A DNA stretch of 39,909 bases from a virus (lineage: Duplodnaviria; Caudoviricetes). Shown here one piece after another: positions 22,565 through 39,909 of this stretch (position 1 is its first letter; every line of letters starts with the position of its first letter). Made by a program: the position numbers and the translations under genes. Below the pieces are notes generated by a model that was given only the letters and a program-made list of their open reading frames with translations, was not told the DNA's origin and made no database searches. Location of the stretch: positions 1 to 39,909 of the IMG/VR virus record IMGVR_UViG_3300023175_000096. One strand, given 5' to 3'.

Positions 22565-22566
22565 CA

Positions 22567-24495: not shown

Positions 24496-24502
24496 CAAAA
24501 CA

Positions 24503-24511
24503 GATAAATAC
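24503..24511 (+). promoter_or_regulatory. Putative late promoter core (gaTAAATAc)
   Basis: In the 39-bp intergenic gap, upstream of an AGGGG Shine-Dalgarno and ATG 24535. Confidence 0.65.
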
Positions 24512-24534
24512 TAAGTCGCAATAGGGGTTTATAA

Positions 24535-26118
24535 ATGGCATATACAATAGATACATATAGTAACAGTAAATCATGGAAAATTGAAGATGGTACTGTTGAT
24601 CAAACTACTGATTTAAAATTAGTAGGTAAAAACTTTGCAGGGTATGGTGAAATACAAAATGAAAATATGGTATTTTTACTTGAAAACTTTGCAGGACAAA
24701 CAGAACCGCCACGCAAACTAACAGGTCAACTTTGGTTTGATAGCGGAAACAGTAAACTAAAATTCTTTGATGGTATTAAATGGCGTACAACAGGTGGCGC
24801 AGAAGTTAGTTCTACAGTTCCAACAGGCCTTAAAGAAGGTGATTTTTGGTGGGATCAAGACAACGAACAACTTTATACATATAACGGCGGAGACTTTGTA
24901 CTTATAGGACCCCAAAGTGCAGGCTCAGGACAAACCCAAATTGTAAGCCGTTCAGTTCGCGACACTGGCGGAACAAGTAGAGGTATTATTACCGCTGTTG
25001 TTAACGATGAAGTAGTATTTACTGTTAGCTCATTTGATTTTACTATTGATAGCCAAGATGTTGATTCAAATATTCCAGGATTTGATAGAATACGTCAAGG
25101 TATTACCCTAAAAAATACATTAGATGGAAGCGGCGGCATTACTTCAGGTGATTGGAGATTAGTTGGTACTTCTACTAACTCTGAAAAACTTGGAGGAAAG
25201 TCAGCATCTGAATATGTAGTTAAAACAGATGCTAATTTTAGTCAATTAGCTCGTTTTTCAGATTTAGGTATTGCAATTGGCGATTCTAACGATTTAAAAA
25301 TTAAACAAGAAATTATTACAGGCAATGGTACACAAGTAGAAAGACCTGTTATATCTAACGAAACTGGCGGTACTATTGCATTTAAAGCAAAAAACAACTC
25401 AGGCGTTGTTGTTAACTCTTTACAAGTATTGTCAAATTCTGTTATTCCTGGATTTACTAACGGCACTGAAACACAAAATAAACCATCACCAACTAATACT
25501 ACTTTAGGTACAGAACAGTATCCATGGGAATCAATATTTGCTAAAGAATATATTGGTTTAGGAACAGCATCTAGAGGCTTAATATTAGAAGATGATGTTG
25601 ACAGTTATGTATTTGATTTTACTAACGGTTTGGAGCCACCTGCAACTTTACTAAGAAAGCCAAGCAAATCAGCTGCTCCAAATACTGTTGTTGTAAGAGA
25701 TCAAGATAGTGACATTTATGCAAACTATTTTCAAGGCATTGCAACAGAAGCATTATATGCTGACCTTGCAGAAAAATATACTACAGATGCAGACTATCCA
25801 GTAGGAACAGTTATGGCAGTAGCAACACAAGGTGAAGCAGAAACAAGATCAGCAAATAGAGGCAGTATTGCAATCGGTGTTATTTCATTAGAACCTGCCT
25901 ACTTAATGAATAAAGGACTAGAAGGCGGCCAAGCTATTGGTCTTAAAGGGCGTGTTCCTGTTCGTGTAATTGGTGCAGTTAAAAAAGGCGATGCAGTTTA
26001 TGTTGACGATAACGGTTGTGCAAGCACAGCAATTAACGGAGGATGCATGGTAGGTATTGCACTAGAAACTAGTGACGATGAAGCAGAAAAATTAATCGAG
26101 TGTGTTTTGAAAGTATAA
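24535..26118 (+). CDS. Putative tail fibre/spike with C-terminal intramolecular-chaperone-like (Peptidase G2-like) domain
   Basis: Same N-terminal module. The C-terminal ALYADLAEKY.....GTVM...GVIS..PAYLMN.....IGLKGRVPVRVIG.VKKGD resembles the autocleaving chaperone domain of trimeric fibres. Confidence 0.65.
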   Translation: MAYTIDTYSNSKSWKIEDGTVDQTTDLKLVGKNFAGYGEIQNENMVFLLENFAGQTEPPRKLTGQLWFDSGNSKLKFFDGIKWRTTGGAEVSSTVPTGLKEGDFWWDQDNEQLYTYNGGDFVLIGPQSAGSGQTQIVSRSVRDTGGTSRGIITAVVNDEVVFTVSSFDFTIDSQDVDSNIPGFDRIRQGITLKNTLDGSGGITSGDWRLVGTSTNSEKLGGKSASEYVVKTDANFSQLARFSDLGIAIGDSNDLKIKQEIITGNGTQVERPVISNETGGTIAFKAKNNSGVVVNSLQVLSNSVIPGFTNGTETQNKPSPTNTTLGTEQYPWESIFAKEYIGLGTASRGLILEDDVDSYVFDFTNGLEPPATLLRKPSKSAAPNTVVVRDQDSDIYANYFQGIATEALYADLAEKYTTDADYPVGTVMAVATQGEAETRSANRGSIAIGVISLEPAYLMNKGLEGGQAIGLKGRVPVRVIGAVKKGDAVYVDDNGCASTAINGGCMVGIALETSDDEAEKLIECVLKV

Positions 26119-26121
26119 ATA
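26114..26121 (+). promoter_or_regulatory. T4-type late promoter TATAAATA
   Basis: Exact TATAAATA overlapping the TAA stop at 26116-26118, upstream of an AGGA SD and ATG 26151. Confidence 0.7.
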
Positions 26122-26150
26122 ATAGCAGCACTTAATAGGAAGAAGATAAC

Positions 26151-27080
26151 ATGGCAAGTTTAGTCCGAGGAGCCGACGATCCAAACGGAGCGTCAAGAAT
26201 TACAGCAGCTAACTATAATGATTTGCAAAAAACTGTTGCAGATATCTTAGGTGTTGGATTCGCCAATACAGGTTACGGACAAGACCTTGTTAGTTCGGCA
26301 TTATTAGCAAATGATATTGTTAGAGCTGAACATATGAATTTAATTAGAGATGATATCAATAGAATTCAAGTTCATCAAACAGGAAGTCTTAGTTCTTTAT
26401 TAGAACTTGAACCTGGAGAAACTGTTGGTGCTAATGACATTGCAGGTGTAGTTGATAAAGGTTTTAATCAATTTGTTGCAGTTGTTAATATTTTAGAAGC
26501 TAACAAAGATGTAGTTGACGGAACTCAAGTAACACTCGAAACTGCAACTACTAGTACACGTTTTGCAGCATGGAATGGTACTGTAGTACATAGTTTTACA
26601 GCTACTTTTGATGATGCTGATCACAGACGTGCATTTTTTAATGCCGGCGGCCAAATTCAAATAAGTGCAACTCTTGAAGGCGACAATACACAAAAAGGCG
26701 CAGATTGGCAGACCATTTTAACAAATATGGGAACAATTAAATTTAGCGCAAATACAACTGAAAAGACTGGAAGTGCTGGTCTTTTACAGCCAATTGGAAA
26801 CTATGACTTAACAACTAGCTATCAAAAAATCTTTGAACGTAGAGGTCAAGCTGATTATTATGCAGAAAACAGATTCTTTATCTATGCAAAAGAAGTAAGC
26901 AACCGAGCAATACAATTTAGTATTGAGTTTGAAGATAACGATGTAGGTGATCCAAACGATGACGAACTCATTAGAGGAACACTAACTAGTATTATTAAAC
27001 AACTAAGACCTACAGGATCATTTGTATCCGTTAAATCTCCTGCATATAGTACACAATCTGATATATCAGAAGGAGATTAA
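26151..27080 (+). CDS. Putative virion structural protein (paralogue of the next gene)
   Basis: 309 aa with GYGQ, D.NR...HQ, ADHRRAFFNAGGQIQISATL, DW.T.L.NMG, IGNYDLTTSYQKIF and YAEN, all shared with 27084..28196. Confidence 0.6.
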   Translation: MASLVRGADDPNGASRITAANYNDLQKTVADILGVGFANTGYGQDLVSSALLANDIVRAEHMNLIRDDINRIQVHQTGSLSSLLELEPGETVGANDIAGVVDKGFNQFVAVVNILEANKDVVDGTQVTLETATTSTRFAAWNGTVVHSFTATFDDADHRRAFFNAGGQIQISATLEGDNTQKGADWQTILTNMGTIKFSANTTEKTGSAGLLQPIGNYDLTTSYQKIFERRGQADYYAENRFFIYAKEVSNRAIQFSIEFEDNDVGDPNDDELIRGTLTSIIKQLRPTGSFVSVKSPAYSTQSDISEGD

Positions 27081-27083
27081 TTT

Positions 27084-28196
27084 ATGGCAGTATCAGTTGG
27101 CGATATAGTTGATCATGACGATTATATTGGTCTAATAGATAGATTAACCGCTGTTATGGGAAACGGCAGTGGACAAAATGGCTATGGTCAAGTAGTTGCT
27201 TCGGCTGAAACATACAAAACTGCAATATCTGGTGGTAGTACTGTTAACATTTCACGAAACGAATGGAATGCATTAAGACTTGACATTAACAGATGTACTC
27301 AACATCAAAGTTCTTCTAATTCTGGAATCAGTACCATTGCTTCAACACATATTATTGGTGCAAACGCAACTGGAACTAGTGTTACTAGAATTACAGGAGA
27401 TACATTTTCAATTGTTTCACCTGATAACGACGAAGGTGTAAACGACTTTGAATCAGCAATTAGTTCTATAGAAACAAATGCTAATAACATAGCTAGTGGA
27501 CAATTTTCATTAACAACAGGAAGAGTTTTTGGAAATTCATCTAGAACAACACAATGGGGTGTTAACACTGTTAACCCTATGATATATACCGAAATGAGTG
27601 TAACATTTGATGGTGGCTATTCAACTACTGCTACTAATGGAACTAGTACTACTGCATCTGGTGCCGATCACAGACGTCATTTTTTTAATGCTGGTGGTGA
27701 AATACGTTTGAGTGCAACACTTAGTGGTTCTACAGCAAAGGATACAGACTGGGGAACAATGTTAGGTAACATGGACCAAGTTATTTTTGGTAAAAATGCA
27801 ACAACATTGTCGCCAAGTGGTTCAGGCAGAGCTAGAGACGGAAGCACCGATGTTGACGGAGCAGGCGGAATTGAAAGTGCGTTAGGTAATTATCAATTAA
27901 CTACGGGCTACCAACTTATATTTCAAAAAAACGGCTCTCAATCAGAATATGCAGAAAACTACGTTGCCATTTATGCTAAAAGAAATAGTTCACAAAATAC
28001 AATTACATTTTTGTTTGAATTTCACGACATTGATAGCGGTGACCAAACAGGTATTGGCCCACCTGTTGATGAACCGGTATTCCAAAACGGTGGCAGTATG
28101 GCCGCTGGAATAGACCTAAAACGACCAAATCAAACAGCTGATGTTAATGTTCCTGAGCCAGTCTTTGCAACAGTTACCGAACTTCGTCTCACATAA
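27084..28196 (+). CDS. Putative virion structural protein, Ser/Thr/Gly-rich (paralogue of the previous gene)
   Basis: 370 aa with an AGGAG SD; motifs GYGQ, ADHRRHFFNAGGEIRLSATL, DWGTMLGNM, LGNYQLTTGYQLIF and YAEN. Confidence 0.6.
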   Translation: MAVSVGDIVDHDDYIGLIDRLTAVMGNGSGQNGYGQVVASAETYKTAISGGSTVNISRNEWNALRLDINRCTQHQSSSNSGISTIASTHIIGANATGTSVTRITGDTFSIVSPDNDEGVNDFESAISSIETNANNIASGQFSLTTGRVFGNSSRTTQWGVNTVNPMIYTEMSVTFDGGYSTTATNGTSTTASGADHRRHFFNAGGEIRLSATLSGSTAKDTDWGTMLGNMDQVIFGKNATTLSPSGSGRARDGSTDVDGAGGIESALGNYQLTTGYQLIFQKNGSQSEYAENYVAIYAKRNSSQNTITFLFEFHDIDSGDQTGIGPPVDEPVFQNGGSMAAGIDLKRPNQTADVNVPEPVFATVTELRLT

Positions 28197-28199
28197 TAC

Positions 28200-28228
28200 T
28201 TGACAAATATTCCTTCTGACTATATACT
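28200..28228 (+). promoter_or_regulatory. Sigma70-type promoter TTGACA-N17-TATACT
   Basis: TTGACA 28200-28205, 17-nt spacer, TATACT 28223-28228, then a GGAGG SD at 28241-28245 and ATG 28251. Confidence 0.85.
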
Positions 28229-28250
28229 ACTAGTATAATTGGAGGAATTT

Positions 28251-28598
28251 ATGGACGAAAGATTAGAAAAAGCATTAGATTTTTCAAACTATATGGTTAC
28301 GTTGAATAATCAACGAAGAATTATTCATGAACAGTTTATAGAAAGCTGTGTACACTATCTTAACGGTGGTAAATTTTCTGTTAACAGAGATCTTATAACG
28401 TTTTGTCACACATTAATAAAGTGCGATCAAACTAGCGCAGTGATTATTGATGATAACAATACTCCAGTTAATGTAGAAGATTTACAAAAATTTTTAGATG
28501 ATATATTAGATATTTATTTTACAACTTCTTACGAATATCTTGACAAACACAACGAGATTAAGAAAAACAGAACTGTGGAAGGTCTTGTTGATTTATGA
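28251..28598 (+). CDS. Hypothetical protein, first gene of the modification operon
   Basis: ATG 28251 has a perfect GGAGG SD, so it is preferred to the TTG at 28239. 115 aa, helical-looking, no recognised catalytic motif. Confidence 0.7.
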   Translation: MDERLEKALDFSNYMVTLNNQRRIIHEQFIESCVHYLNGGKFSVNRDLITFCHTLIKCDQTSAVIIDDNNTPVNVEDLQKFLDDILDIYFTTSYEYLDKHNEIKKNRTVEGLVDL

Positions 28599-29455
28599 GC
28601 AAAGGTGTACTACTGTTTGCACAAAACAATCACTCAATTGATTACATTAAACAAGCAATATTTTGTGCAAAGAAAATTAAAAAACATCTAAATCTTCCCG
28701 TAGCTCTTGCTACGGATAATGCAGACTATCTTAAAAACACATTTCCTTATTACGAAAGATATATTGATCATGTTCTAGAGTTAAACTGGTACGAATGTAA
28801 GCAAAAGCGTACATATCGTGATGGCACTATGAGTACTAGAGATTTAGAATGGCGCAATCATGATCGTGTAACAGCGTATGATATTACGCCATTTGATGAA
28901 ACTATTGTTATGGATACCGATTTTATTATTGGTAATGATAGTTTATTAAATGCATTTGATACTGATCAAGATTTTTTAATATTTAGACACATAACAGATC
29001 TAAATATGGACAGGCCTGACGAATATAGATTTAATAAAATTAGCGACCGAAGTGTTGATATGTATTGGGCAACTGTTTTTTATTTTAAAAAAACAGAAAG
29101 TATGAGATTGTTTTTTGATCTCATAACACATATTAAAGAAAACTGGAATTTTTATAGACTTACATATCAAATTGCAAATAAAACATATCGTAATGATTTT
29201 GCATTTAGTATAGCCATACATATACTAAATGGATTTCAAAGAACAAATTGGCCAAAAGTCTTACCTGGCAGGTTATGGTTTACTAGTGATGCAGATGTGT
29301 TAGTTAAACTTGAAGATGAAAGTTATACATTTCTATTAGATAAAAAACATTGGGTAGGACACTACCATGTAGGAAAGGCAGAAAATGTAAACATTCATAT
29401 TATGAATAAATTTGCATTGGATAGATTTATTACAGAGGAGTTAGCAAATGAATAG
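28595..29455 (+). CDS. GT-A fold (nucleotide-diphospho-sugar) glycosyltransferase-like protein
   Basis: N-terminal KGVLLFA strand, Y.KQA...A..I, and AYDITPFDETIVMDTDF carrying a DxD motif, with later RNDFAFSIA. ATGA overlap with the upstream gene. Confidence 0.65.
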   Translation: MSKGVLLFAQNNHSIDYIKQAIFCAKKIKKHLNLPVALATDNADYLKNTFPYYERYIDHVLELNWYECKQKRTYRDGTMSTRDLEWRNHDRVTAYDITPFDETIVMDTDFIIGNDSLLNAFDTDQDFLIFRHITDLNMDRPDEYRFNKISDRSVDMYWATVFYFKKTESMRLFFDLITHIKENWNFYRLTYQIANKTYRNDFAFSIAIHILNGFQRTNWPKVLPGRLWFTSDADVLVKLEDESYTFLLDKKHWVGHYHVGKAENVNIHIMNKFALDRFITEELANE

Positions 29456-30290
29456 AGGATTTTGTTTGCTGGCACAAAATAATTCTAAAACAGATTATGT
29501 ACGTCAAGCATATGCTCTTGCACTAAGTTTGCATCTTTATAACAAAGATCAAAAGATTAGTTTAATTACTAATGATATTGTGCCCAAAGAATGGCAAAGT
29601 GTATTTGATCAAATTATTCCTATACCTTGGACTGATAGTGCAGAAGATAGCGAATGGAAAATTGAAAACAGATGGAAAGTTTATCATGCTAGTCCATATG
29701 AAGAAACTATTGTATTAGAAGCTGACATGCTTATTACTAGTGATATTACTCATTGGTGGAACGAATTAGGAAAACATGATTTATTTTTTGTAAGCAATGT
29801 AAGAACTTATCGAGATGAATTAGTAACTAACAGATTTTATAGAAAAACATTTGATGCTAACGAACTTCCTAATTTGTATAGTGCGTTACATTATTTTAAG
29901 AAAGGTAAAACTGCAAAAGAATTTTATAATTTACTTGAAATTATTGTGAATAACTGGGCATTATTTTATTCTAAGTATGCTCCAAACGAATATCAAAAAT
30001 GGTGTAGTATTGATTTATCAGCAGCTATTGCAAGTAAAATATTAGGCAATGAAACTGAAATTACTAACCCTAGCAGTTTTATCACATTTACACATATGAA
30101 GCCGCTAATACAAGGATGGTATAATAAACCTCAAAAATGGACTAAAGTTCTTGGAAAATATTTTACTGATGAAGGTAATTTGTTTTTAGGAAATTATTTA
30201 CAAACTAGAGTACTACATTATGTAGAAGATAGTTTCTTAACAGATGAATTAATAGAGAAATTAAAACATGGAAAAACACTTTTATCTTAA
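29448..30290 (+). CDS. GT-A fold glycosyltransferase-like protein, paralogue of the upstream gene
   Basis: RGFCLLAQNN..DYVRQAYALALS, and ENRWKVYHASPYEETIVLEADML with ExD in place of DxD; C-terminal FTHMKP and LHYV. Confidence 0.65.
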   Translation: MNRGFCLLAQNNSKTDYVRQAYALALSLHLYNKDQKISLITNDIVPKEWQSVFDQIIPIPWTDSAEDSEWKIENRWKVYHASPYEETIVLEADMLITSDITHWWNELGKHDLFFVSNVRTYRDELVTNRFYRKTFDANELPNLYSALHYFKKGKTAKEFYNLLEIIVNNWALFYSKYAPNEYQKWCSIDLSAAIASKILGNETEITNPSSFITFTHMKPLIQGWYNKPQKWTKVLGKYFTDEGNLFLGNYLQTRVLHYVEDSFLTDELIEKLKHGKTLLS

Positions 30291-30846
30291 TTTTAGAGAA
30301 GACACAGGAAATATATGGAAGCTAACTAACGAGTTAGATACTTCAACGCCTTATATTGAAATTGATCGCGAAACAATGTTAGACTTTGCTGAAGAAAGAA
30401 AAAAGATGGATGATTATATGGTTGTTCCGTCTAGCGATAAAACATTAAAATATGAGATTAAATTTAAACATAAAGATTTATCTGAATTTGATGTTGATAA
30501 AAGTGTTCACAGATTACCTATAGTTGATACTATAGATACAAATAATGCATTTTTAATTAAACAAAATTTAAAAACTGCTACGTGGACTATTAGTTTAACA
30601 GAAGAACTAAGAGAGTTATTATCGAGTACACTTTATTATAAAGATAAAAATCAAGTAGTATATGTTACACAAAAAGATAATCCTGCTGTATTACTAGACA
30701 CACTTGATATTAAAATGTATAATGTATTATATACAGATAGTTTTGAAATGAAAGATCAAGATATAGATGTTGCTAAAAATCCTAAAGTAAGTTTATATTG
30801 CGGAAAAGCATTTGAAAATTATTTTCACATTCAGGAGACAGAATGA
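30268..30846 (+). CDS. Hypothetical protein
   Basis: 192-aa ORF overlapping both neighbours in the coupled run; no recognised motif. Confidence 0.65.
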   Translation: MEKHFYLNFREDTGNIWKLTNELDTSTPYIEIDRETMLDFAEERKKMDDYMVVPSSDKTLKYEIKFKHKDLSEFDVDKSVHRLPIVDTIDTNNAFLIKQNLKTATWTISLTEELRELLSSTLYYKDKNQVVYVTQKDNPAVLLDTLDIKMYNVLYTDSFEMKDQDIDVAKNPKVSLYCGKAFENYFHIQETE

Positions 30847-31736
30847 GTACTATTAAAATAGTAGATCAAGATATTATCTTTTTGTCATACGACGAACCAA
30901 ACGCAGAAAAGAACTATGCTGACTTATGTCAGAAAGTGCCTTGGGCTAAACGTGTACATGGAGTACATGGTAGCGATGCAGCACATAAGGCGTGTGCAGA
31001 CTTAGCTGAAACAGAATATTTTATTACTGTAGATGCAGATAATATTATAGATCAAGAATTTTTAAATGTTGAAGTAGATTATGAAGAATTAGGGTTAACG
31101 CCTGAACATGTTTTTAGTTGGTGTGGTAAAGTACACGTTAACGGACTTATGTACGGCAACGGTGGACTTAAAATGTGGACACGCAAATTTGTTCACAATA
31201 TGAAAACACATGAACACAGTGAAGAAGGCGACGAACGTGGAAAAGTTGAATTTTGCTTTGACGACAAGTATTATCAATTTAACGAGAACTACAGCGTTTC
31301 ATATACTAATGCTACACCGTGGCAGTCTTGGAGAGCAGGCTTCCGTGAAGGTGTTAAAATGAGTTTAGATCAAGGCGCAAAAGTAAATGACTTGCGTAAG
31401 GTATGGTGGCAAAACTATCAACGATTACTTATATGGAGTCAAGTTGGAGCAGATGTAAAAAACGGCATATGGAGTATATTAGGCGCACGACAAGGCTGTT
31501 ATATGACAAACTGTACAGATTGGGATTATGCTAATGTGCGTGACTTTGAATGGCTAAACAACTTTTGGGAAAGTGATGTAAAAAATCTAAACCCAGAAGA
31601 AGAAGCAGAACGTTTAGGATTTGAAATACTAAAAGGCACAGGTGTTGATATGTCTACTAAACCGTTAGATGCAGAACAAAGCAAGTTCTTTAAGGCAGTA
31701 TATCAAAATACACCAAGGATTATTAGATCTAGATGA
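30843..31736 (+). CDS. Glycosyltransferase family 2-like (GT-A) protein
   Basis: DIIFLSYDEP first strand, AHKACA, YFITVDADN (DxD), NGLMYGNGGLK, WRAGFREGVKM; AGGAG SD and ATGA coupling. Confidence 0.7.
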   Translation: MSTIKIVDQDIIFLSYDEPNAEKNYADLCQKVPWAKRVHGVHGSDAAHKACADLAETEYFITVDADNIIDQEFLNVEVDYEELGLTPEHVFSWCGKVHVNGLMYGNGGLKMWTRKFVHNMKTHEHSEEGDERGKVEFCFDDKYYQFNENYSVSYTNATPWQSWRAGFREGVKMSLDQGAKVNDLRKVWWQNYQRLLIWSQVGADVKNGIWSILGARQGCYMTNCTDWDYANVRDFEWLNNFWESDVKNLNPEEEAERLGFEILKGTGVDMSTKPLDAEQSKFFKAVYQNTPRIIRSR

Positions 31737-33115
31737 GTAACGAACAGCGTATAAAAATACTAGAAGAAAAGCGTGAAAAAATTAACAATGTTAGTTGTAG
31801 CTTCTGTACGGCTAAATGGCTGCAAACTACACTGCTATTACAAAATGGATACAATCACAGTTGCCACCATCCAGCACCGCATAAAATTCCTTTAGAAGAA
31901 ATTGAAAAAGACCCTGCTGCACTGCATAACAGTCAATATAAAAAACAACAAAGACTTGATATGATTTTAGGTAACAGGCCTAAAGAATGCGAATATTGTT
32001 GGAAGATAGAAGATTTAGGCAAAGACTATTTTAGTGATCGTCATTACAAAACAGCAGATACTTGGGCATGGGATAGATTTGAAGAAATAGCAACCAGTGA
32101 CCCTGGAGAAAATGTTTATCCTAGTTACTTAGAAGTATCATTTTCAAATGCATGTAACTTTGCTTGTGCGTACTGTTCTCCTGAAATTAGTTCAAAGTGG
32201 ATGGAAGATGTAAAACAAAATGGACCTTATCCTACTAAGCATGGTGCTCATCATTTAGATTATTTAGAAAAAACAGGCAAAATGCCTTATCGTCATAGTG
32301 ATGATAATCCATATGTTACTGCATTTTGGAAATGGTTTCCTGATGCATTGCCTTATTTAAAAGTATTACGCATTACAGGCGGCGAACCTACAATGTCAAA
32401 AGACACATGGAAGTTGCTAGATTATCTAATTGAAAATCCTCGTCAAGGGTTAGACGTTGCTATCAATACAAATGCCTGTGTTGAAAATAAATTAATAGAT
32501 AAACTAATAGAAAAAATCAATGCATTAAATAGTGTTGGTGTTAAAGTTGATGTTTATACTAGCCTTGAAAGCACAGGCGCACAAGCAGAATATGTAAGAG
32601 ACGGGCTAGTTTACAGCAAGTGGTTAATAAATGTAGATAGATTACTAAAAGAAACTAAATCATCTGTTGCTATAATGACTACAGTTAACATGTTAAGTCT
32701 TCCTAGTTTTATTGATTTTATAATGTTAATTATGGACTTTCGTAAAGAATACAATAAAACATTTGAAATTAATCGTATACCGTTAAGTATTAATATTATG
32801 CGTTGGCCACCTCACTTACAATGCACTTTATTAGATAAAGAATATCGAACAAGTATTGCAAATACTATTGAAAAAGTTTGTGAACAATGGTTAAAATATT
32901 ATACTAAAGAAAAATATGCTAGAATATATCTAGAAGAATTTGATCAAATACAAAGACTTTGTGATTATTTGAGGTCAACGGAGCCAGCAGTGGAACACAG
33001 AGCTGACTTTGTACGATACATACATGCATATGATAAAAGAAGAAATAAAAATTTTGTAGAAGTATTTCCACAATATATAGAAATGTTAGAGGAATGGGAT
33101 GCCAAAGAAGCCTGA
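31733..33115 (+). CDS. Radical SAM protein with N-terminal twitch-like Cys cluster
   Basis: CNFACAYC (CxxxCxxC) at about 32153, ITGGEPT, INTN; N-terminal FCTAKW...SCHHP...ECEYCW. Confidence 0.9.
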   Translation: MSNEQRIKILEEKREKINNVSCSFCTAKWLQTTLLLQNGYNHSCHHPAPHKIPLEEIEKDPAALHNSQYKKQQRLDMILGNRPKECEYCWKIEDLGKDYFSDRHYKTADTWAWDRFEEIATSDPGENVYPSYLEVSFSNACNFACAYCSPEISSKWMEDVKQNGPYPTKHGAHHLDYLEKTGKMPYRHSDDNPYVTAFWKWFPDALPYLKVLRITGGEPTMSKDTWKLLDYLIENPRQGLDVAINTNACVENKLIDKLIEKINALNSVGVKVDVYTSLESTGAQAEYVRDGLVYSKWLINVDRLLKETKSSVAIMTTVNMLSLPSFIDFIMLIMDFRKEYNKTFEINRIPLSINIMRWPPHLQCTLLDKEYRTSIANTIEKVCEQWLKYYTKEKYARIYLEEFDQIQRLCDYLRSTEPAVEHRADFVRYIHAYDKRRNKNFVEVFPQYIEMLEEWDAKEA

Positions 33116-34547
33116 AGAAAATTTACAACAGTATCGAGATAGGGTACTTAACAGTAAAAGTAAAAGTTTTTGCGGAGCAAAGTGGTACAATGCTACTACT
33201 TGGTTAGGTAGTGGTACAACTGCAAGTTGTCACCATCCACCTGCACATCAAATTCCGCTAGTAGAAGTACAGGAAAATTTTACAGCTATTCATAATACAG
33301 AACACAAAAAAGAAATGCGCCGTATGATGCAAAACGGTGAGCGTCCTCGAGAGTGTGAGTATTGCTGGAAGATGGAAGATATGGGTAAAAATGCAGTCAG
33401 TGACCGTACTTTCAAAAGCATTATCTATACTGACGAACAATTACAACAAGCATATGAAGCTGACTATAAAGAAAATACTAACCTTAAAACTTTCGAGATT
33501 GCTTTTGATAGGGTTTGTAATCTTGCTTGTTCATACTGCAATGCCTCCTTTAGCACCACCTGGGCCAAAGACATCAAGAACAACGGACCATACGAGAATC
33601 TTGTAAGTGATGGCGCCGGAGCCTTCCATCAAGACGGATCGTGGGCACAGCCTTATAAAAATGACGAAGACAATCCTTACATTCAAGCATTTTGGAAATG
33701 GTGGGATAACGGTCTTAGTGAAAGTTTAGAAGAACTACGTGTTACAGGTGGCGAACCTTTGATGAGCGGAAACACTTGGAAATTATTTGATTGGTTTAAT
33801 GCGCAAGATACTAATATGAGATTTGCTATCAATAGTAATCTTATTGCTAAAGAAGATATTATAGATAGGCTAATTGCCAAAACACAAGGTATGAAACATT
33901 TTGATTTGTATACTAGTTGCGAAGCAGTAGGTGCGCAAGCAGAATATATTCGTGATGGATTAGATTATGAACTATGGTTAAAAAATATTAAACGTATTTT
34001 AACCGAAGGTAATTGTAATGGCGTAAACATTATGATGACTATTAATAGTCTTTGTTTGTTTAGTATTACAGAGTTCCTTGACGAAGTATATAAATTAAAA
34101 GAACTTACACAAAGTAGAAAACCTACAGTAAGTTTAAACTTATTGCGTTTTCCTAGTTTTCAAAGTCCACTAGCATTACCTAACCATATAAAAGACTATT
34201 GTCATGATAAGTTAAACACTTGGTGGCAAAAACGCAAAGACGATATTGGCTGGCATGAGTTTGAAAAAGCAAGTATAGAAAGACTTATAGATTACTTAGT
34301 TACTGTTGATGCTCCGCATAGACGTACAAGTAATCCAGTAACGCTATGGCGTGACTTTAAAACTTTCTATCAGCAATATGACATTAGACGTAACAAAAGC
34401 ATCTATGTATTTCCTAAAATTCTTACAGACTGGGTAGACAGTATTCCGGACACTGATTTAGCAATACAAGAATTAGCAGAAAAAGAAGGTTGGGTGCTAA
34501 AACCCGATTCGAGGAACATCGATGATCCCCTTGCGGCCTACGATTAA
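33099..34547 (+). CDS. Radical SAM protein with N-terminal twitch-like Cys cluster (close paralogue of the upstream gene)
   Basis: CNLACSYC at about 33516, VTGGEPL, INSN; N-terminal FCGAKW...SCHHP...ECEYCW; shared DNPY..AFWKW and QAEY.RDGL.Y..W. Confidence 0.9.
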   Translation: MPKKPEENLQQYRDRVLNSKSKSFCGAKWYNATTWLGSGTTASCHHPPAHQIPLVEVQENFTAIHNTEHKKEMRRMMQNGERPRECEYCWKMEDMGKNAVSDRTFKSIIYTDEQLQQAYEADYKENTNLKTFEIAFDRVCNLACSYCNASFSTTWAKDIKNNGPYENLVSDGAGAFHQDGSWAQPYKNDEDNPYIQAFWKWWDNGLSESLEELRVTGGEPLMSGNTWKLFDWFNAQDTNMRFAINSNLIAKEDIIDRLIAKTQGMKHFDLYTSCEAVGAQAEYIRDGLDYELWLKNIKRILTEGNCNGVNIMMTINSLCLFSITEFLDEVYKLKELTQSRKPTVSLNLLRFPSFQSPLALPNHIKDYCHDKLNTWWQKRKDDIGWHEFEKASIERLIDYLVTVDAPHRRTSNPVTLWRDFKTFYQQYDIRRNKSIYVFPKILTDWVDSIPDTDLAIQELAEKEGWVLKPDSRNIDDPLAAYD

Positions 34548-35877
34548 TTTGTATTACGATAAAATTATAGACAATACTCCAGTTCCAAATGGTGTCACAG
34601 AATATAATTTTACTAAAGACTTACTTAGAATTCCTGTAAGTGCTAAAAAACACTGGCCAATTAACGATACTACATTACTCTTTAACGTACTTAAAGTACT
34701 AGATGTTGAAAGAGTTAATATCTTTTCAGGAAACGAAACTGCAAAGAGTTTGTTTTATCCATTAGAGCTTAACAAAGGAAATTCATGGTATGATTTAGAT
34801 TTTGAAACTATTATTCCTAATAAATCTCTTTCTAAAATTAGAAAAGGTAAAATGAAATTATTAATTTTTGCACCAAGATTGTCTCATGATTATAGAGTAT
34901 TATGGAAATTAAGAACACAACTTGATAAACTAGGTGCAAAAAAGATAACAAGAGATAAAATCTATATTGTTTTAGGTGATTTAAATCGTTCATATAGAAA
35001 ATTATTTGATAATCCTAATGTATATGGTATAGACTGGTGGCAAATTTTTGCACAACTTGCTTATAAAAATAGAGATAGTGAAAAAAGCATGTATTGGGTA
35101 TATAGAGAGCCATCATTTTTTCCGTTATCTCCTGAACAAATTGATAAAGAAGATTTTAAATTTGAAAATTGGAAGCCTAAAAGAGTATTTACAGCATACA
35201 CAGGTAATAATGCAAGACACAATCTTGCATTTATTAGTGAATTAATATATAGACAGTTAGATGTGCATGGGAAATATAGTTTTAATTTAACAAAAGAAAA
35301 AACTCCTATAAATTCTAGTAATTTTAGAATAATTGACAAAACTAACAGTACTGAATATGTTAGAAAAAAAGAACAAATTATAAAATCATTAACAGGAACA
35401 AAAAAATTAGATTATGATTTTAATACTTTAAGAAGAACTCCGTTAGTGTTTGATAAATCTGACTACGAAGATAGTTTAATTAGTATTGTCAGCGGACCAT
35501 ATTCGCCTATGTTTGATAGATCTTATATGGATGAAGTTAATATGCTATCCCCTAAATTAGGTATTTGGAGACAAATAGCCAAAGGGCACCCGTTCATGGC
35601 GCTTGGTTGTTTAAATACAATGGGTTATATAGGAGGAGAAGGATATTTTCTTCCTACCTTAATTACAAATCATTTTTATGATAGAGTATCAAAAACAACA
35701 GATAAAGTTAAACTAATGTGCGATAGTATTGAAATAATGTCACAGTACACTGAGCAAGAAATGGCAGATAAAGTAGAAGAATTAATACCATTTATGAAAA
35801 AGAATAAACAAAAGTTTTTTAATATGAAACATCAACGTAAATTTGAAAAACTTTTTAGTGAGATGAACTATGAATGA
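34522..35877 (+). CDS. Hypothetical protein, possibly a divergent GT-B-like glycan-related protein
   Basis: 451 aa with a GAGG SD, coupled on both sides. The C-terminal Y.DSLISIVS...IAKGHPFMALG...G.EGY....FYD resembles a degenerate GT-B C-terminal domain; weak evidence. Confidence 0.45.
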   Translation: MIPLRPTINLYYDKIIDNTPVPNGVTEYNFTKDLLRIPVSAKKHWPINDTTLLFNVLKVLDVERVNIFSGNETAKSLFYPLELNKGNSWYDLDFETIIPNKSLSKIRKGKMKLLIFAPRLSHDYRVLWKLRTQLDKLGAKKITRDKIYIVLGDLNRSYRKLFDNPNVYGIDWWQIFAQLAYKNRDSEKSMYWVYREPSFFPLSPEQIDKEDFKFENWKPKRVFTAYTGNNARHNLAFISELIYRQLDVHGKYSFNLTKEKTPINSSNFRIIDKTNSTEYVRKKEQIIKSLTGTKKLDYDFNTLRRTPLVFDKSDYEDSLISIVSGPYSPMFDRSYMDEVNMLSPKLGIWRQIAKGHPFMALGCLNTMGYIGGEGYFLPTLITNHFYDRVSKTTDKVKLMCDSIEIMSQYTEQEMADKVEELIPFMKKNKQKFFNMKHQRKFEKLFSEMNYE

Positions 35878-37135
35878 TGATTTAAAAAATAGTCCTAATT
35901 TTTGCGTAGCACCGTGGATGCATTTACATGTTATTAATGATGGAAGATCGTTTGCATGTTGTCAAACGCCTTTACGTGAAGAAAATAGTTTTGGAAATGT
36001 CAAACATGAAAAATTAATAGACGTTGTTAATAGTCCTAAAGCTAAAAAAATGCGAAAGGACATGTTAGAAGGAAAACCTCTTCCTAGTGCATGTGAACGT
36101 TGTGTATCAAAACAACAGAATAATTTGAATACTATGCGTACTGGTCTTAATAGTAAATGGTTTGATGAAACTAAAGACTTAATTGCTAGTACGGCAGAAG
36201 ATGGTACATTGCCTGAATTACAATTAAAATATTGGGACTTTAGATTTTCAAATTATTGTAATCTTGCTTGTACAACATGTTCGCCTCTCTTTAGTACACA
36301 GTGGGCAAAAGATTTTCAAAAATTACATCCTGGTGCAGACAAATATAGTGAAACTCAACTTATTGACTTAAAAGAAGCAAATGTATTTTGGGAAGACATT
36401 GAAGAAAATCTTGAAACTATGAAAGAGATACACTTTGCTGGTGGCGAACCATTAATTATGCCCGAGCATTGGAGAATTCTCAATATGCTAGACGAAAAAG
36501 AAAAATATGATATTTCTTTACGTTACAGTACAAATGGTACAACATTAGGAACAAAAAAACAAGATGTAATAGAATTATGGAAAAAATTTAACTATGTTCA
36601 TTTAAGTTTAAGTATAGACGGAGAAAGTGATACATTTGAGCACATTCGTTATAAAGGCAAATGGAAAGAAACATTAGAAAATCTTAAAAAGATTAGAGCT
36701 AGTGGAGCAGTTGATTATTGGTTTCATCCTACTGTTAGTATTCTTAATATATTTAGGCTTACTGAGTTACATCATGAATTGCATATTAATGATTTAATGC
36801 CACTAGAAGCAGTCCATCCAACTAGGGGCTTTTATATGGAAAACTATTGGGTAGATAGATTTCATATTAATCCTTTATTTACACCTGATTATTATAGTAT
36901 AACTGTTTTACCAGAAAATTTAAAAGAACAAGCAGCAGATAAGATTACAAAATATGGTAAAAAATTAGAAGCTGACACAGGCATACCGTTTAGTGGTTGG
37001 CAAAATATTATAGACTTTATGTACCAACATGATAATAGTCATTTATGGAAACAGTTTAAATGGAAGTCAAAACAGATAGACGATATTAGAGGTACTGATG
37101 TTTTTGCGTTAAATCCGGAGTTATTAGATGGCTAA
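35870..37135 (+). CDS. Twitch-domain-containing radical SAM protein
   Basis: N-terminal FCVAPWMHL....DG...ACC...GNV...MR..ML.G.....CERC; DFRFSNYCNLACTTC at about 36257, HFAGGEPL, YSTNGT, SIDG, IRY..KW. Confidence 0.9.
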   Translation: MNDDLKNSPNFCVAPWMHLHVINDGRSFACCQTPLREENSFGNVKHEKLIDVVNSPKAKKMRKDMLEGKPLPSACERCVSKQQNNLNTMRTGLNSKWFDETKDLIASTAEDGTLPELQLKYWDFRFSNYCNLACTTCSPLFSTQWAKDFQKLHPGADKYSETQLIDLKEANVFWEDIEENLETMKEIHFAGGEPLIMPEHWRILNMLDEKEKYDISLRYSTNGTTLGTKKQDVIELWKKFNYVHLSLSIDGESDTFEHIRYKGKWKETLENLKKIRASGAVDYWFHPTVSILNIFRLTELHHELHINDLMPLEAVHPTRGFYMENYWVDRFHINPLFTPDYYSITVLPENLKEQAADKITKYGKKLEADTGIPFSGWQNIIDFMYQHDNSHLWKQFKWKSKQIDDIRGTDVFALNPELLDG

Positions 37136-37961
37136 AATCAGAGGAGAAAAATTTAAACCTTTTGCACAAAATGCACCAATGAATAGTGATAATATTGCTT
37201 ACTATGGTGTACTTAAATATGAAGCGTTTCTTACACGACTTGAAAAGTTTAGTCCTGATGGCAATTATTTTATTAAAGAAACTATGCAAGATGCAGAAAA
37301 AGAAAATTTTGACAAAGATCCTTGGACTTACTATTTTAATAAATTTAATTTTAGAGATGAGTTTAATGCTGATAGTCCTAAAAAGAAAATTGGGTTTTTT
37401 GGCTGTAGTTTTACAATGGGAGAAGGAATTAAAAGAGAAAAAACTTTTGCCTATCAAGTAGCAAGCGAGTTTGATTTAGAATATTTTAATTTTGGTGCTC
37501 CTGGTTCAAGTGTAGAAAGGGTTGCTAGAACTTTTAGTATGGCTACTAAACTTGTTAATTTAGATTATGCAGTAATAACTTTTCCTAGTCATTTTAGACA
37601 ATTTTATCAAAATTCAAATTCAGAGATTATCAATATAATTCCTGGATGGCCCCACAGTGGATATAAAAAGATGGTAGAGACACTGTATACACTAGATGAT
37701 GAATTTTTTGCAGTTAAAGCAGTGTCGCATATTAATTGGGTGCATGATGTTGCCGAAGCTAATAATATTAAAATAATTTATAGTAGTTGGGATCATCCAT
37801 TAAACGAGCTTTGCAGTTTCTTAGCACCAAAGCAGACAATAGATCCATTTCCTAACATTGATGATAAATGTGCAAGAGATAACATGCATCCTGGTATAAA
37901 ATCGCAAACTGCTCATGCAGAACAAATTATAAAGGCAATCAATGATAGAGCTTGGGTTTAG
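37128..37961 (+). CDS. SGNH/GDSL-like hydrolase or acyltransferase fold protein
   Basis: Block I FFGCSFTMGEG, block II YFNFGAPGSS, and block V ARDNMHPG (DxxH) followed by a C-terminal helix. Confidence 0.75.
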   Translation: MAKIRGEKFKPFAQNAPMNSDNIAYYGVLKYEAFLTRLEKFSPDGNYFIKETMQDAEKENFDKDPWTYYFNKFNFRDEFNADSPKKKIGFFGCSFTMGEGIKREKTFAYQVASEFDLEYFNFGAPGSSVERVARTFSMATKLVNLDYAVITFPSHFRQFYQNSNSEIINIIPGWPHSGYKKMVETLYTLDDEFFAVKAVSHINWVHDVAEANNIKIIYSSWDHPLNELCSFLAPKQTIDPFPNIDDKCARDNMHPGIKSQTAHAEQIIKAINDRAWV

Positions 37962-38910
37962 AAATATAGAAAATAAAATTGAATATATCAATATACAGCC
38001 AAATGATAATGAACTATCAAACATATGGCTTAGTCAGCTTGACTTTTTATTAGCAACACATAATAGAAAAATATTTCAAAAAAATTTTAGTTTGCTAGGC
38101 TTTCATAACGATTACAGAACAGTAGCCCATATATGTGACGATCTTGATAGAAGTATTGCAACGATTAATTATTATAGCGATTATAAGATAGTAGAAAATT
38201 TTGGTCCCTTGCGTAATGGTTATGATCAAGATTTATTAAATATTTTACATCATCATTTTGAAGTTATGCAAGGGCAGTTATGGAATCCTGGTAACGAACT
38301 TGCTAATGCAAATGGTGATACTAGATTAGCAATTTGTTTTCTTAATCATTGCTGTCATGAATTAGAAGCATGGTACGAAACAGAAAACATAAAAGACGAA
38401 GGTTATCGAAACGGTTATTTTTATTATAACTTATTAGGTATCCAAGAAAGGATTGAACTAGATCCTAAATTTAAAAAAGATTTTACAAAAGATGTTACAG
38501 ACGGAATGGTATATCTTCATTACGCACAAACTGGAAAAACCTGGTTTGAAGCATATCTAGATAATGACGATGTTGTTGAATCAGCAGGAATATCTGAGCA
38601 TAGAGTTATTAGTGGAGAATTTAATTGCTATTTTGGAACTGGATACGAATTACCTTCAGATGAAAAATTTAGTTCTTGGCTAGAAAGTAAAGGCGTCGAT
38701 CCTAATGATGAACAATTAGGTCTTGGTTATGCACCTGTCGGAAAAGTAACAAATCTTACTGATGGAGAAGCACAAGATTTCTTTAAAGAATATAATGACT
38801 TTTATAGTATAGAATTTAACAAAAAACGTATTGAATATGATTTTCGTCACACTGATAATGCCTATATTAGATTGCTCACAGACATGTGGAGTAAATGGGG
38901 ACAACAATGA
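37942..38910 (+). CDS. Hypothetical protein with His/Glu-rich helical motifs
   Basis: 322 aa, coupled; LNILHHHFE, LNHCCHELE, LHYAQTGK. No family recognised. Confidence 0.6.
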   Translation: MIELGFRNIENKIEYINIQPNDNELSNIWLSQLDFLLATHNRKIFQKNFSLLGFHNDYRTVAHICDDLDRSIATINYYSDYKIVENFGPLRNGYDQDLLNILHHHFEVMQGQLWNPGNELANANGDTRLAICFLNHCCHELEAWYETENIKDEGYRNGYFYYNLLGIQERIELDPKFKKDFTKDVTDGMVYLHYAQTGKTWFEAYLDNDDVVESAGISEHRVISGEFNCYFGTGYELPSDEKFSSWLESKGVDPNDEQLGLGYAPVGKVTNLTDGEAQDFFKEYNDFYSIEFNKKRIEYDFRHTDNAYIRLLTDMWSKWGQQ

Positions 38911-39872
38911 GTGTACCTGATTTAGAACGTGCAGTAGTAGAAGTATTTGGCGGCTGTAATTACAAGTGTCAAATGTGTCCACAGACTACCGGAAGAGGTA
39001 AGGACTGGACACGTAAAATGCCTATGGACATGTTTATTAACATACTTGAACAACTGCCAGGTAAACCTGTTATTAATTTAGAAGGCAGTGGCGAACCTAC
39101 TATGGCTAAAGATTTGCCTAAGTATATTGAGGAATGTACTAAGCGAGGATTTCCTAGTTTTATGTACAGTAACGGTAGTTTCTTTAGCGGACACTTTATG
39201 CAAGAGTGTATTGATGCAGGACTAAGTTTTGCTAGGTTTAGTTGTATAGGATATAACAAAGAAAAATACAAAGAGTGGATGTCTGTAGATAATTTTGATT
39301 TATTGAAAACAAACATAGTAAAGGCTAAAGAATACATTAAAGAAACTAATAGTAAATGTGTAGTAAGCAGTTATCATTTAATACTTGACAATAATCAAGT
39401 AGATTACGAAGTTGATCAATACAGAAATAATTTTATAGGACCTACAGGAACTATAGGTTATATTTGGAAAATGCATAACTGGAGCGGAAACTACCAACCA
39501 TTGTATGTTAGAGATCCTAGTAAGCGTAGAACTTGTGGCCGCCCGTTCGCTCCTGAAATTACAATACGTAGTGGAGGTAACGGAGGATTAAAAGGTGCAG
39601 TTACGCCTTGCTGTCAAACAATGGGTCCTCCTAACGAAAGCAAAAGTGTGCTAGGACATGTGCAAAATCAAACCATAGAAGAAATATGGTACGGAGACGA
39701 ATACAACAAACTTCGTAAGGCACATGAGTTGAAAGACTTTGACAGTATTGATTATTGTAAAAATTGCGATTTCTTGTATGACGATCCAGAAGTATTAGTA
39801 TGGTCGAACGATAAAACAGCAACACCGTATCATATGCTAGGCACAAACTTTAGTCTAAAAGATTACGGTTGA
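38907..39872 (+). CDS. Radical SAM protein with C-terminal SPASM/twitch domain
   Basis: CNYKCQMC at about 38955, GSGEPT, YSNG; C-terminal CGRPF...PCC...LGHV...TIEEIWYG..YNKLR..H......C.NC. Start 38907 (ATGA overlap, GGGGA SD) is preferred over 38895. Confidence 0.9.
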   Translation: MSVPDLERAVVEVFGGCNYKCQMCPQTTGRGKDWTRKMPMDMFINILEQLPGKPVINLEGSGEPTMAKDLPKYIEECTKRGFPSFMYSNGSFFSGHFMQECIDAGLSFARFSCIGYNKEKYKEWMSVDNFDLLKTNIVKAKEYIKETNSKCVVSSYHLILDNNQVDYEVDQYRNNFIGPTGTIGYIWKMHNWSGNYQPLYVRDPSKRRTCGRPFAPEITIRSGGNGGLKGAVTPCCQTMGPPNESKSVLGHVQNQTIEEIWYGDEYNKLRKAHELKDFDSIDYCKNCDFLYDDPEVLVWSNDKTATPYHMLGTNFSLKDYG

Positions 39873-39897
39873 CATATAAACACAGAGGCTTTATAAT
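39869..39897 (+). promoter_or_regulatory. Perfect consensus sigma70 promoter TTGACA-N17-TATAAT
   Basis: TTGACA 39869-39874 (overlapping the TGA stop), 17-nt spacer, TATAAT 39892-39897; an ATG follows at 39904. Confidence 0.85.
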
Positions 39898-39909
39898 TAT
39901 AAAATGTAC

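Follow-up and report, generated by a model that had tools for sequence, protein, structure and literature searches.

Islands rich in glycosyltransferase genes beside the tail-fibre genes of large aquatic phages have been noted since 2020. The closest described system is the host recognition cluster (HRC) of pelagimyophages and cyanomyophages (Zaragoza-Solas et al. 2020, PMC7029224). Here we describe a related island in a viral record from IMG/VR (IMGVR_UViG_3300023175_000096; Duplodnaviria, Caudoviricetes), in which an operon of 12 overlapping genes (g1 to g12) follows late-class virion genes and encodes predicted glycosyltransferases, radical S-adenosylmethionine (SAM) enzymes and an SGNH-like protein. 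The whole record, 39,909 nt in length, is called the window; it is a fragment estimated at ~9% of a T4-like myophage genome. The operon is real, but it is not conserved as a single 12-gene block: a six-gene core (g1 to g5, and a further gene termed g5') encloses a variable cassette.

As far as the available text of PMC7029224 describes it, the HRC is likewise a large fibre-adjacent island of T4-like aquatic phages with many glycosyltransferases (GT8 is commonest in the HRC) and enzymes of sugar metabolism, in which radical SAM cassettes distinguish close relatives. In contrast, the HRC is non-syntenic, whereas here the six-gene core is strictly ordered and variation is confined to the middle and far part of the island. 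The HRC is bounded by VrlC and gp14, whereas here the island ends at an Mtd_N fibre gene that replication genes follow, and the carriers are ~350-kb phages related to RsoM2USA/PA5oct. The operon is akin to the HRC and departs from it in two defining features (order and boundaries); the same available text describes neither the core nor its promoter class. In mycobacteriophage Che8, phage glycosyltransferases are linked to virion glycosylation, with glycan on the capsid and tail tube (Freeman et al. 2023, as cited in PMC11256854 and PMC12619734). The likeness to that system, at the level of these citing accounts, is that several phage glycosyltransferases are proposed to coat virion proteins; here, the genes adjoin fibres, radical SAM tailoring is added, and the system is known from genes alone. 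Phage DNA glycosylation clusters (T4 beta-glucosyltransferase; TET with C5-methyltransferase, or thymidylate synthase-type ThyS, plus GT-A enzymes; 10.1101/2023.12.21.572611, PMC13326640) share GT-A and nucleotide-sugar genes and early timing with this locus, but the base-hydroxylating partner and R..DDD..EDY/F motif were not found here, and the DNA kit of RsoM2USA lies elsewhere. Four core glycosyltransferase orthogroups have been reported for ‘moraphages’ in the accessible part of PMC12619734. Within the literature searched, comprising main texts with supplements set aside (RsoM2USA Table S3, HRC gene lists and moraphage orthogroups), the core is not described. A first-pass annotation of the sequence knew of no characterised phage pathway with this composition; the module is real, common and indeed uncharacterised, yet similar fibre-adjacent islands with glycosyltransferases and radical SAM genes, themselves uncharacterised, have been published for pelagimyophages (PMC7029224).

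An ordered core around a variable cassette

Twelve consecutive + strand open reading frames (ORFs) occupy 28251-39872, and each overlaps the next (11/11 junctions, by 4-26 nt with ORF-maximal starts), as the first-pass annotation had reported (Table 1). Its position for the operon start is that of the promoter (TTGACA-N17-TATACT, scoring 11/12), and the g1 start is corrected to the ATG at 28251. The second promoter, which had been read as closing the operon, is present but opens a further core glycosyltransferase gene, g5' (ATG 39904), so that the system extends past 39872. In relatives, g5' starts M-Y-D-I at the position matching 39904.

Estimates of the viral stretches that match the patterns are ~1100 for g5 and ~1500 for g2, and the best 80 of each were used. 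Once duplicates, RsoM2USA and the contig of the window itself had been set aside, 133 loci were left, of which 105 span the interval from a virion gene to g5. The order g1-g2-g3-g4-g5 is fixed in 105/105 of these, and g1 lies directly 3' of the virion gene in 104. A match to g2 and g5 was found in a single one of 50,697 cultured phage records, that of Ralstonia phage RsoM2USA. It is a soil phage with g1 to g5, one g6 orthologue (43.5% identity) that overlaps g5 as in the window, and a g5 paralogue; the core is kept from aquatic phages to this phage from soil. Core genes co-diverge with virion genes to a moderate degree (rho 0.26-0.57 over the two sets), which linkage alone predicts, and this is not used here.

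Both g5 and g5' are present in 89 loci, adjacent to each other in 56 and separated by a cassette in 33. A gene for an N-terminal twitch (N-twitch) radical SAM enzyme occurs in 31 of these 33 cassettes, and the seven genes of the window in eight. Co-conservation in relatives thus holds for the core and fails for the genes between g5 and g5'. A quick tree was built from 84 g3 rows (Shimodaira-Hasegawa-like approximate likelihood ratio support only, long branches flagged). Two changes suffice on it to explain the adjacent state, and 47 rows group in a single branch; repeated cassette loss as the source of the 56 adjacent loci is therefore rejected. This one clade of 47 rows was found to keep the core without an N-twitch enzyme, and the N-twitch family NF033640 matched none of 12 scanned records of the adjacent arrangement, all of which are fragments. 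The three other adjacent-type rows have radical SAM genes after g5'. Given the two changes and the single branch, the g6-type enzyme appears to be an old companion of the core that was lost once, with the rest of the cassette variable.

Cassettes of relatives carry nucleotide-sugar genes, with UDP-glucose/GDP-mannose dehydrogenase in 12 loci (71 cluster representatives scanned), and also epimerases, dehydratases, DegT with hexapeptide acetyltransferase, GDSL proteins and 2-oxoglutarate enzymes. In the closest relative (G006), the island continues for ~18 kb beyond g5' with nine more radical SAM genes, a QueC-like protein and Asp/Asn-hydroxylase-type oxygenases; there and in G001 and G033, the island closes with an Mtd_N fibre gene that is followed by replication genes. 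The operon in the window is thus the opening stretch of a larger island.

The cores and cassettes also vary in smaller ways. An epimerase-like or UDP-sugar dehydrogenase-like gene, judged by eye, is inserted between g3 and g4 at L026:8507-9424 and L126:11654-12430, and in six loci a malonyl-CoA decarboxylase-like gene (PF05292) separates g5 from g6 (e.g., L003:10894-11391). Ten loci of the g5 family were found in genome contigs, and the seven inspected resemble phage contigs binned into metagenome-assembled genomes (MAGs). Module contigs L161, L163, L164 and L167-L170 are filed in MAGs of unrelated bacteria, and these labels should not be taken for hosts. Upstream of the operon, the window contains genes for gp25 and the wedge, then an ORF of 5180 aa and the fibre genes.

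Table 1. Features of the window and their positions
Feature	Position	Strand	Description
Opening promoter	28200..28228	+	Sigma70 early-type, TTGACA-17-TATACT, 11/12; opens operon
g1	28251..28598	+	Core; 115 aa; no family
g2	28595..29455	+	Core; predicted GT8/GT24-type GT-A glycosyltransferase
g3	29448..30290	+	Core; predicted GT8-like paralogue of g2
g4	30268..30846	+	Core by position; fast-evolving; no family
g5	30843..31736	+	Core; predicted soluble GT2-like GT-A glycosyltransferase; V63-D64-x-D66
g6	31733..33115	+	N-terminal twitch radical SAM; NF033640 328 bits; most persistent cassette gene
g7	33099..34547	+	N-terminal twitch radical SAM; NF033640 301 bits
g8	34522..35877	+	Phage family; possible GT10-like (GT-B) transferase
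g9	35870..37135	+	N-terminal twitch/SPASM radical SAM; NF033640 367.5 bits; PF04055, PF13186
g10	37128..37961	+	SGNH/GDSL-like acyl-enzyme; S94, D251, H254
g11	37942..38910	+	Conserved cassette protein without family
g12	38895..39872	+	Radical SAM; C-terminal twitch/SPASM; PF04055, PF13186
Restart promoter	39869..39897	+	Sigma70, TTGACA-17-TATAAT, 12/12; precedes g5'
g5'	39904..39909	+	First two codons (M-Y); cut by contig end
f3, g0a, g0b	24535..28196	+	Last late-class virion genes before operon; candidate acceptors
5180-aa ORF	4301-19843		Between wedge gene and fibre genes

Predicted enzymes and their glycan context

The three GT-A-like proteins of the first-pass annotation are confirmed as GT-A folds, g2 and g5 by structure models and g3 by profile. 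The g2 model has a predicted local distance difference test score (pLDDT) of 91.7. Its best matches in VIA are UGGT (Z 15.1), glycogenin (14.9), GlyE (14.6), Gat1 (14.5) and LgtC (14.4), with Z of 14-15 across the nine best rows and WbbM among the structures resembled, and its Foldseek match has E 8e-7. D107-x-D109 and H268 are invariant in 35 aligned g2 sequences. The paralogue g3 (25% identity to g2, E 4e-13), which is known by sequence, reaches glycogenin at E 1.6e-4 by profile only; D93, H216 and H257 are invariant in 39 aligned sequences and the first acid of the motif is E in the window. The C-terminal His of GT8-type enzymes is metal-binding. Both proteins are predicted to have a GT-A fold with a DxD motif and C-terminal His as in GT8/GT24. 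No Pfam match was found for g2, g3 or g5 at E<=0.01, so g2 and g3 are called GT8-like rather than GT8. PDB profile searches were blank for g2 and g5, and for g9.

For g5, the model (pLDDT 85.5) matches BcsA (Z 9.4), chlorovirus HAS (9.1) and PcManGT (8.5) in VIA, and SunS (E 9e-5) and RmlT (E 1e-4) in Foldseek; D64 and D66 are invariant in 36 aligned sequences. These moderate scores suggest a GT2-like GT-A enzyme with a DxD motif. The QxxRW motif is a feature of processive GT2 synthases. In the g5 family an invariant W-x3-F-R-E stands, by eye, where QxxRW would be, the maximum hydropathy of g5 is 0.87 and it has no membrane helices, so that neither QxxRW nor the transmembrane channel of processive synthases (BcsA/HAS) is found. 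The sixth core member, g5', is by its sequence in relatives a second GT2-like gene. N-terminal extensions of g5' are common (550-660 aa, up to 1364 aa) and resemble degenerate repeats of its own domain (e.g., L017:9128-10795, L031:10893-12605 and L170:4320-8414).

The other two core proteins have no family. Family searches were blank for g1, which matches 643 clusters at E<=1e-3. A likeness of g1 to the fibre-assembly domain DUF4376 (PF14301) is not supported: hhalign probabilities of 0.08 and 0.20 equal those of reversed and shuffled controls. A PDB profile match of g1 to a ciliate respiratory subunit (E 0.003) is taken as chance. CBM_5_12 matches 3/73 g4 members (best E 0.009), with weak CBM5/12-like inserts in long forms, and the PDB profile search for g4 was blank; a fibre-assembly domain at its N-terminus has no support from Pfam, PHROG or PDB. 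Long g4 forms reach ~445 aa (e.g., L095:5117-6454 and kin).

Within the cassette, g6, g7, g9 and g12 each have one CxxxCxxC motif, which bears out the four radical SAM enzymes first proposed. The bit scores of g6, g7 and g9 place them within NF033640 (N_Twi_rSAM; cut-off 170 bits), in which an N-terminal cysteine domain precedes CxxxCxxC; g7 is a paralogue of g6 (38% identity), and no relative of g9 was found in genome contigs. The best PDB sequence match of g12 is BtrN (E 1.8e-10), a radical SAM aminocyclitol dehydrogenase. The SAM motif region and twitch domain are both aligned, over two short stretches only, and there is no butirosin-type context; g12 is called BtrN-like by this sequence likeness. 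The SGNH-like triad of g10 stands: its Ser, Asp and His, within the blocks G-C-S, N-x-G and R-D-x-x-H that correspond to the SGNH Ser, Gly and Asp-x-x-His blocks, are invariant in 9/9 aligned homologues, and homologues in other cassettes match Lipase_GDSL. No invariant block III Asn was seen by eye in these nine, Pfam was blank for g10 and its PDB profile match is weak (E 0.35). For g8, the nearest named Atlas clusters are GT10, with scores (0.79 and 0.78) that fall short of the 0.9 mark of the tool, 0/29 members match PF00852 at E<=0.1, and Pfam and PDB profile searches were blank; that g8 may be a fifth, GT10-like transferase is a lead only. None of 80 homologues of g11 has a Pfam match, and Atlas was blank for it. 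By hydropathy, no 19-mer above 1.55 occurs in any of the 12 operon proteins, and the operon has no membrane or export gene.

NF033640 has no described reaction in the literature searched. It occurs in 3/401 genomes of one bacterial phylum, one of which is a MAG whose inspected contig is phage-like (L163). In G136 the gene order is rmlC, rmlD, wzm, a Wzt fusion, three more N-twitch genes, TylF, a methyltransferase and WbsX; the fusion joins a Wzt ABC ATPase and Wzt_C to SPASM and radical SAM domains (L224:8582-11101, - strand, G136:C19). In G207 the NF033640 gene adjoins a GT2 gene and an epimerase. These two bacterial contexts are few, but the fusion to the carbohydrate-binding end of a polysaccharide exporter ties the family to glycans and is direct support, at the level of domain architecture, for NF033640 acting on them; it supplies the glycan context of g6, g7 and g9. 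In RsoM2USA, an epimerase/GDP-mannose dehydratase gene also lies among those for the virion. Sugar chemistry of the operon is well supported by the folds, the nucleotide-sugar genes of relatives and the Wzt fusion. The initial proposal of glycan assembly and tailoring keeps this part and loses that of a single 12-gene unit.

Promoters and expression class

The two promoters in Table 1 are the best sigma70-type sites of 22000-39909. The total of promoter-like sites in this interval is at chance (86 vs 80.1 in shuffles), so that support for the two rests on conservation in relatives. A sigma70 site of at least 10/12 lies upstream of g1 in 47/54 relatives (2.6 in shuffles) and in 53/58 of a second set (2.4 in shuffles; 80 nt scanned); the two sets have some contigs in common and contain related rows, so the counts do not represent independent events. 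Five of the 58 have no such site. In RsoM2USA the best sigma70 site upstream of g1 scores 8/12 and a late-like ATAAGTA stands instead, and L126 and L136 have TAAATA by eye without a sigma70 site. These late-like elements mean that early timing may not be essential. The gene g5' has its own sigma70 site in 14/14 loci with a preceding cassette and in 1/37 where it abuts g5; because the site tracks cassette presence, the promoter first read as closing is an internal restart of the system.

The motif (T)ATAAATA is the T4 late-type promoter motif. It occurs at the virion genes of the window (773, 19840, 24504 and 26114), where the last two sites serve the f3/g0a/g0b stretch, and in relatives ATAAATA precedes f3 in 39/46 (1.4 in shuffles) and g0a in 34/59 (4.4 in shuffles). 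A 335-kb relative has strong sigma70 sites before ribonucleotide reductase, helicase, exonuclease, FolE, QueD and deoxynucleoside monophosphate kinase genes, and ATAAATA before sheath, baseplate and fibre genes and also before many non-structural genes. The operon would thus be early-type and the fibres late-type, with timing read from motifs only, and adjacency does not amount to co-regulation. No terminator-like site was found between g0b and g1, so late read-through is possible.

The 335-kb relative (G033:C57, L195-L211) is a near-complete jumbo phage in a bacterial MAG, and a second copy on C77 scores identically. It carries terminase, portal, capsid, polymerase and ThyX genes and no terminal repeat. 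Other genes include NifU/IscU, IscA-like, ferredoxin, heme oxygenase, bilin reductase, alternative oxidase and a phosphate ABC transporter, together with KdsA/B-like and heptose-pathway-like enzymes and FolE/QueD/QueC-like proteins without DpdA. Near-identical pieces of g3, g5, g6, g9, g11, g12 and fibre genes occur in RNA libraries labelled as salt marsh; these contigs are uninformative on transcription, its level or timing, and uncovered bins carry no meaning.

What the pathway may decorate

Our preferred reading, to which we give a probability of about 0.45, is that the operon glycosylates virion fibre or baseplate proteins and that the variable cassette edits the sugars. The pathway is likely soluble: the two GT8-like and two GT2-like predicted glycosyltransferases of the core, the last of them encoded just beyond the window, would build a short sugar chain on an acceptor made by the phage, for which the products of f3, g0a and g0b are candidates. 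The fixed core and its place behind virion genes fit this reading. Early expression would load the cytoplasm with the enzymes and with edited nucleotide-sugar donors before late virion proteins are made. In this scheme, g2 and g3 would transfer sugars through a metal-DxD site, as GT8 enzymes do, and g5 and g5' as GT2 enzymes do; g12 would, like BtrN, oxidise a hydroxyl group of a sugar or cyclitol, g6, g7 and g9 would perform related radical chemistry, and g10 would add or remove O-acyl groups. The proteins g1 and g4 may be non-catalytic partners, with g1 a possible adaptor. Of the enzymes closest to g2 in fold (UGGT, glycogenin, GlyE, Gat1 and LgtC), several act on glycoproteins. The PA5oct orthologues of f3 and g0a bear the record note ‘ESI-MS/MS’. 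The broader claim, that a widespread ~350-kb myophage lineage glycosylates its own fibres or baseplate with a conserved four-transferase core and varies the glycan through radical SAM enzymes of the variable cassette, is put forward only tentatively.

Several observations weigh against virion proteins as the target. PA5oct makes orthologous virion proteins without the core, which makes the module accessory, and Ser+Thr enrichment of fibres as an acceptor mark was rejected because carriers are not above PA5oct. The best fold match of g5 is only Z 9.4 with a TM-score of ~0.33. ATAAATA precedes g1 in 0/54 and 0/58 relatives, and the sigma70 class of the operon is that of replication and metabolic genes, which also fits host-surface or DNA targets. 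The clade without N-twitch genes implies that the core can do without the radical SAM enzymes, whose substrate may lie elsewhere. The nearest published description, in the text available of PMC7029224, favours modification of the host O-chain.

Conversion of the host surface, in which early soluble enzymes would edit lipid-linked O-antigen or capsule units at the cytoplasmic face and so alter the surface of the infected cell to exclude competing phages or grazers, is possible for this operon but unlikely. The early-type promoter, the cellular N-twitch enzymes in a polysaccharide export locus, the resemblance of g2 to LgtC, GlyE and WbbM, and the Kdo-, heptose- and GDP-sugar-type enzymes of the 335-kb relative agree with it, as does the preference stated for pelagimyophages in that same partial text. 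It leaves the strict fibre linkage unexplained, however, and it would have to accommodate an operon with no membrane or export gene and a g1 in RsoM2USA that has no sigma70 site. The same core across very different habitats and hosts would also fit a phage-made acceptor better than hypervariable O-antigens. A different division, in which the core glycosylates and the radical SAM genes are an independent expanding family (e.g., protein-modifying) in a recombination-tolerant island under one early promoter, is distinctly improbable. Radical SAM genes are missing from one whole clade, N-twitch copy number ranges from two (in RsoM2USA, with one copy ~90 kb away at 126888-128168) to at least seven, and radical SAM genes also lie after g5' and on the opposite strand; yet nearly all g5-g5' cassettes contain an N-twitch gene, g6 overlaps g5 even in RsoM2USA, and bacteria have the Wzt fusion. 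More improbable still is a free small glycoside, aminocyclitol or glycolipid (a signal, toxin, osmolyte or anti-defence decoy) instead of a coat: the BtrN-like g12 would suit it, and a continuation with nine radical SAM genes, a QueC-like ATPase and oxygenases seems to exceed the needs of a short glycan, but no scaffold synthase or exporter was seen, the minimal clade retains the transferase core alone, and the position 3' of fibres is fixed.

DNA hypermodification, in which the transferases would glycosylate a hydroxylated base that radical SAM enzymes elaborate, was already the less favoured option in the first-pass annotation; this judgement is borne out, and we regard DNA as the weaker option and a very improbable target. 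Early timing matches that of replication genes, relatives carry FolE/QueD/QueC-like genes, and GT-A DNA glycosyltransferases exist, according to the available part of 10.1101/2023.12.21.572611. RsoM2USA (MG752970.1) has a T4-type beta-glucosyltransferase (1890-3020) and a second thymidylate-synthase-family gene (7607-8443), which together are probably a glucosyl-hydroxymethylcytosine kit, so that a hydroxylated base is probably present there, but this kit lies >200 kb from the core. Known DNA glycosylation requires a hydroxylated base, as the accessible text of PMC13326640 and 10.1101/2023.12.21.572611 has it, and neither TET/5mYOX with C5-methyltransferase nor a ThyS-type hydroxymethylase was found in the window. 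A hydroxymethylase-like paralogue or beta-glucosyltransferase occurs in 0/32 other carrier records (3.56 Mb, fragments), which include DNA polymerase in 12, ThyX in 10 and canonical thymidylate synthase in two; TET searches had no positive control and carrier contigs are incomplete. The 335-kb contig has ThyX but no Pfam match to thymidylate synthase-family, TET, beta-glucosyltransferase or C5-methylase (285/358 ORFs scanned), and its lack of DpdA also counts against this reading. The R..DDD..EDY/F motif of DNA GT-A enzymes is not, by eye, among the invariants of g2, g3 and g5, and these proteins are net acidic.

The island resolves into a small invariant core and a variable cassette, which reduces the matter of its target to a six-gene question, and a cultured phage, RsoM2USA, carries the core with one radical SAM gene at the locus. 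The large enzyme family NF033640, for which no reaction was found in the literature, is tied to glycans by the Wzt fusion. If virion glycosylation is true, the island would be a phage counterpart of flagellin/O-antigen glycosylation islands and would provide the first function for the N-twitch family, and coats of radical-made sugars on virions would give abundant phages a further, new means of recognising hosts and shielding their particles.

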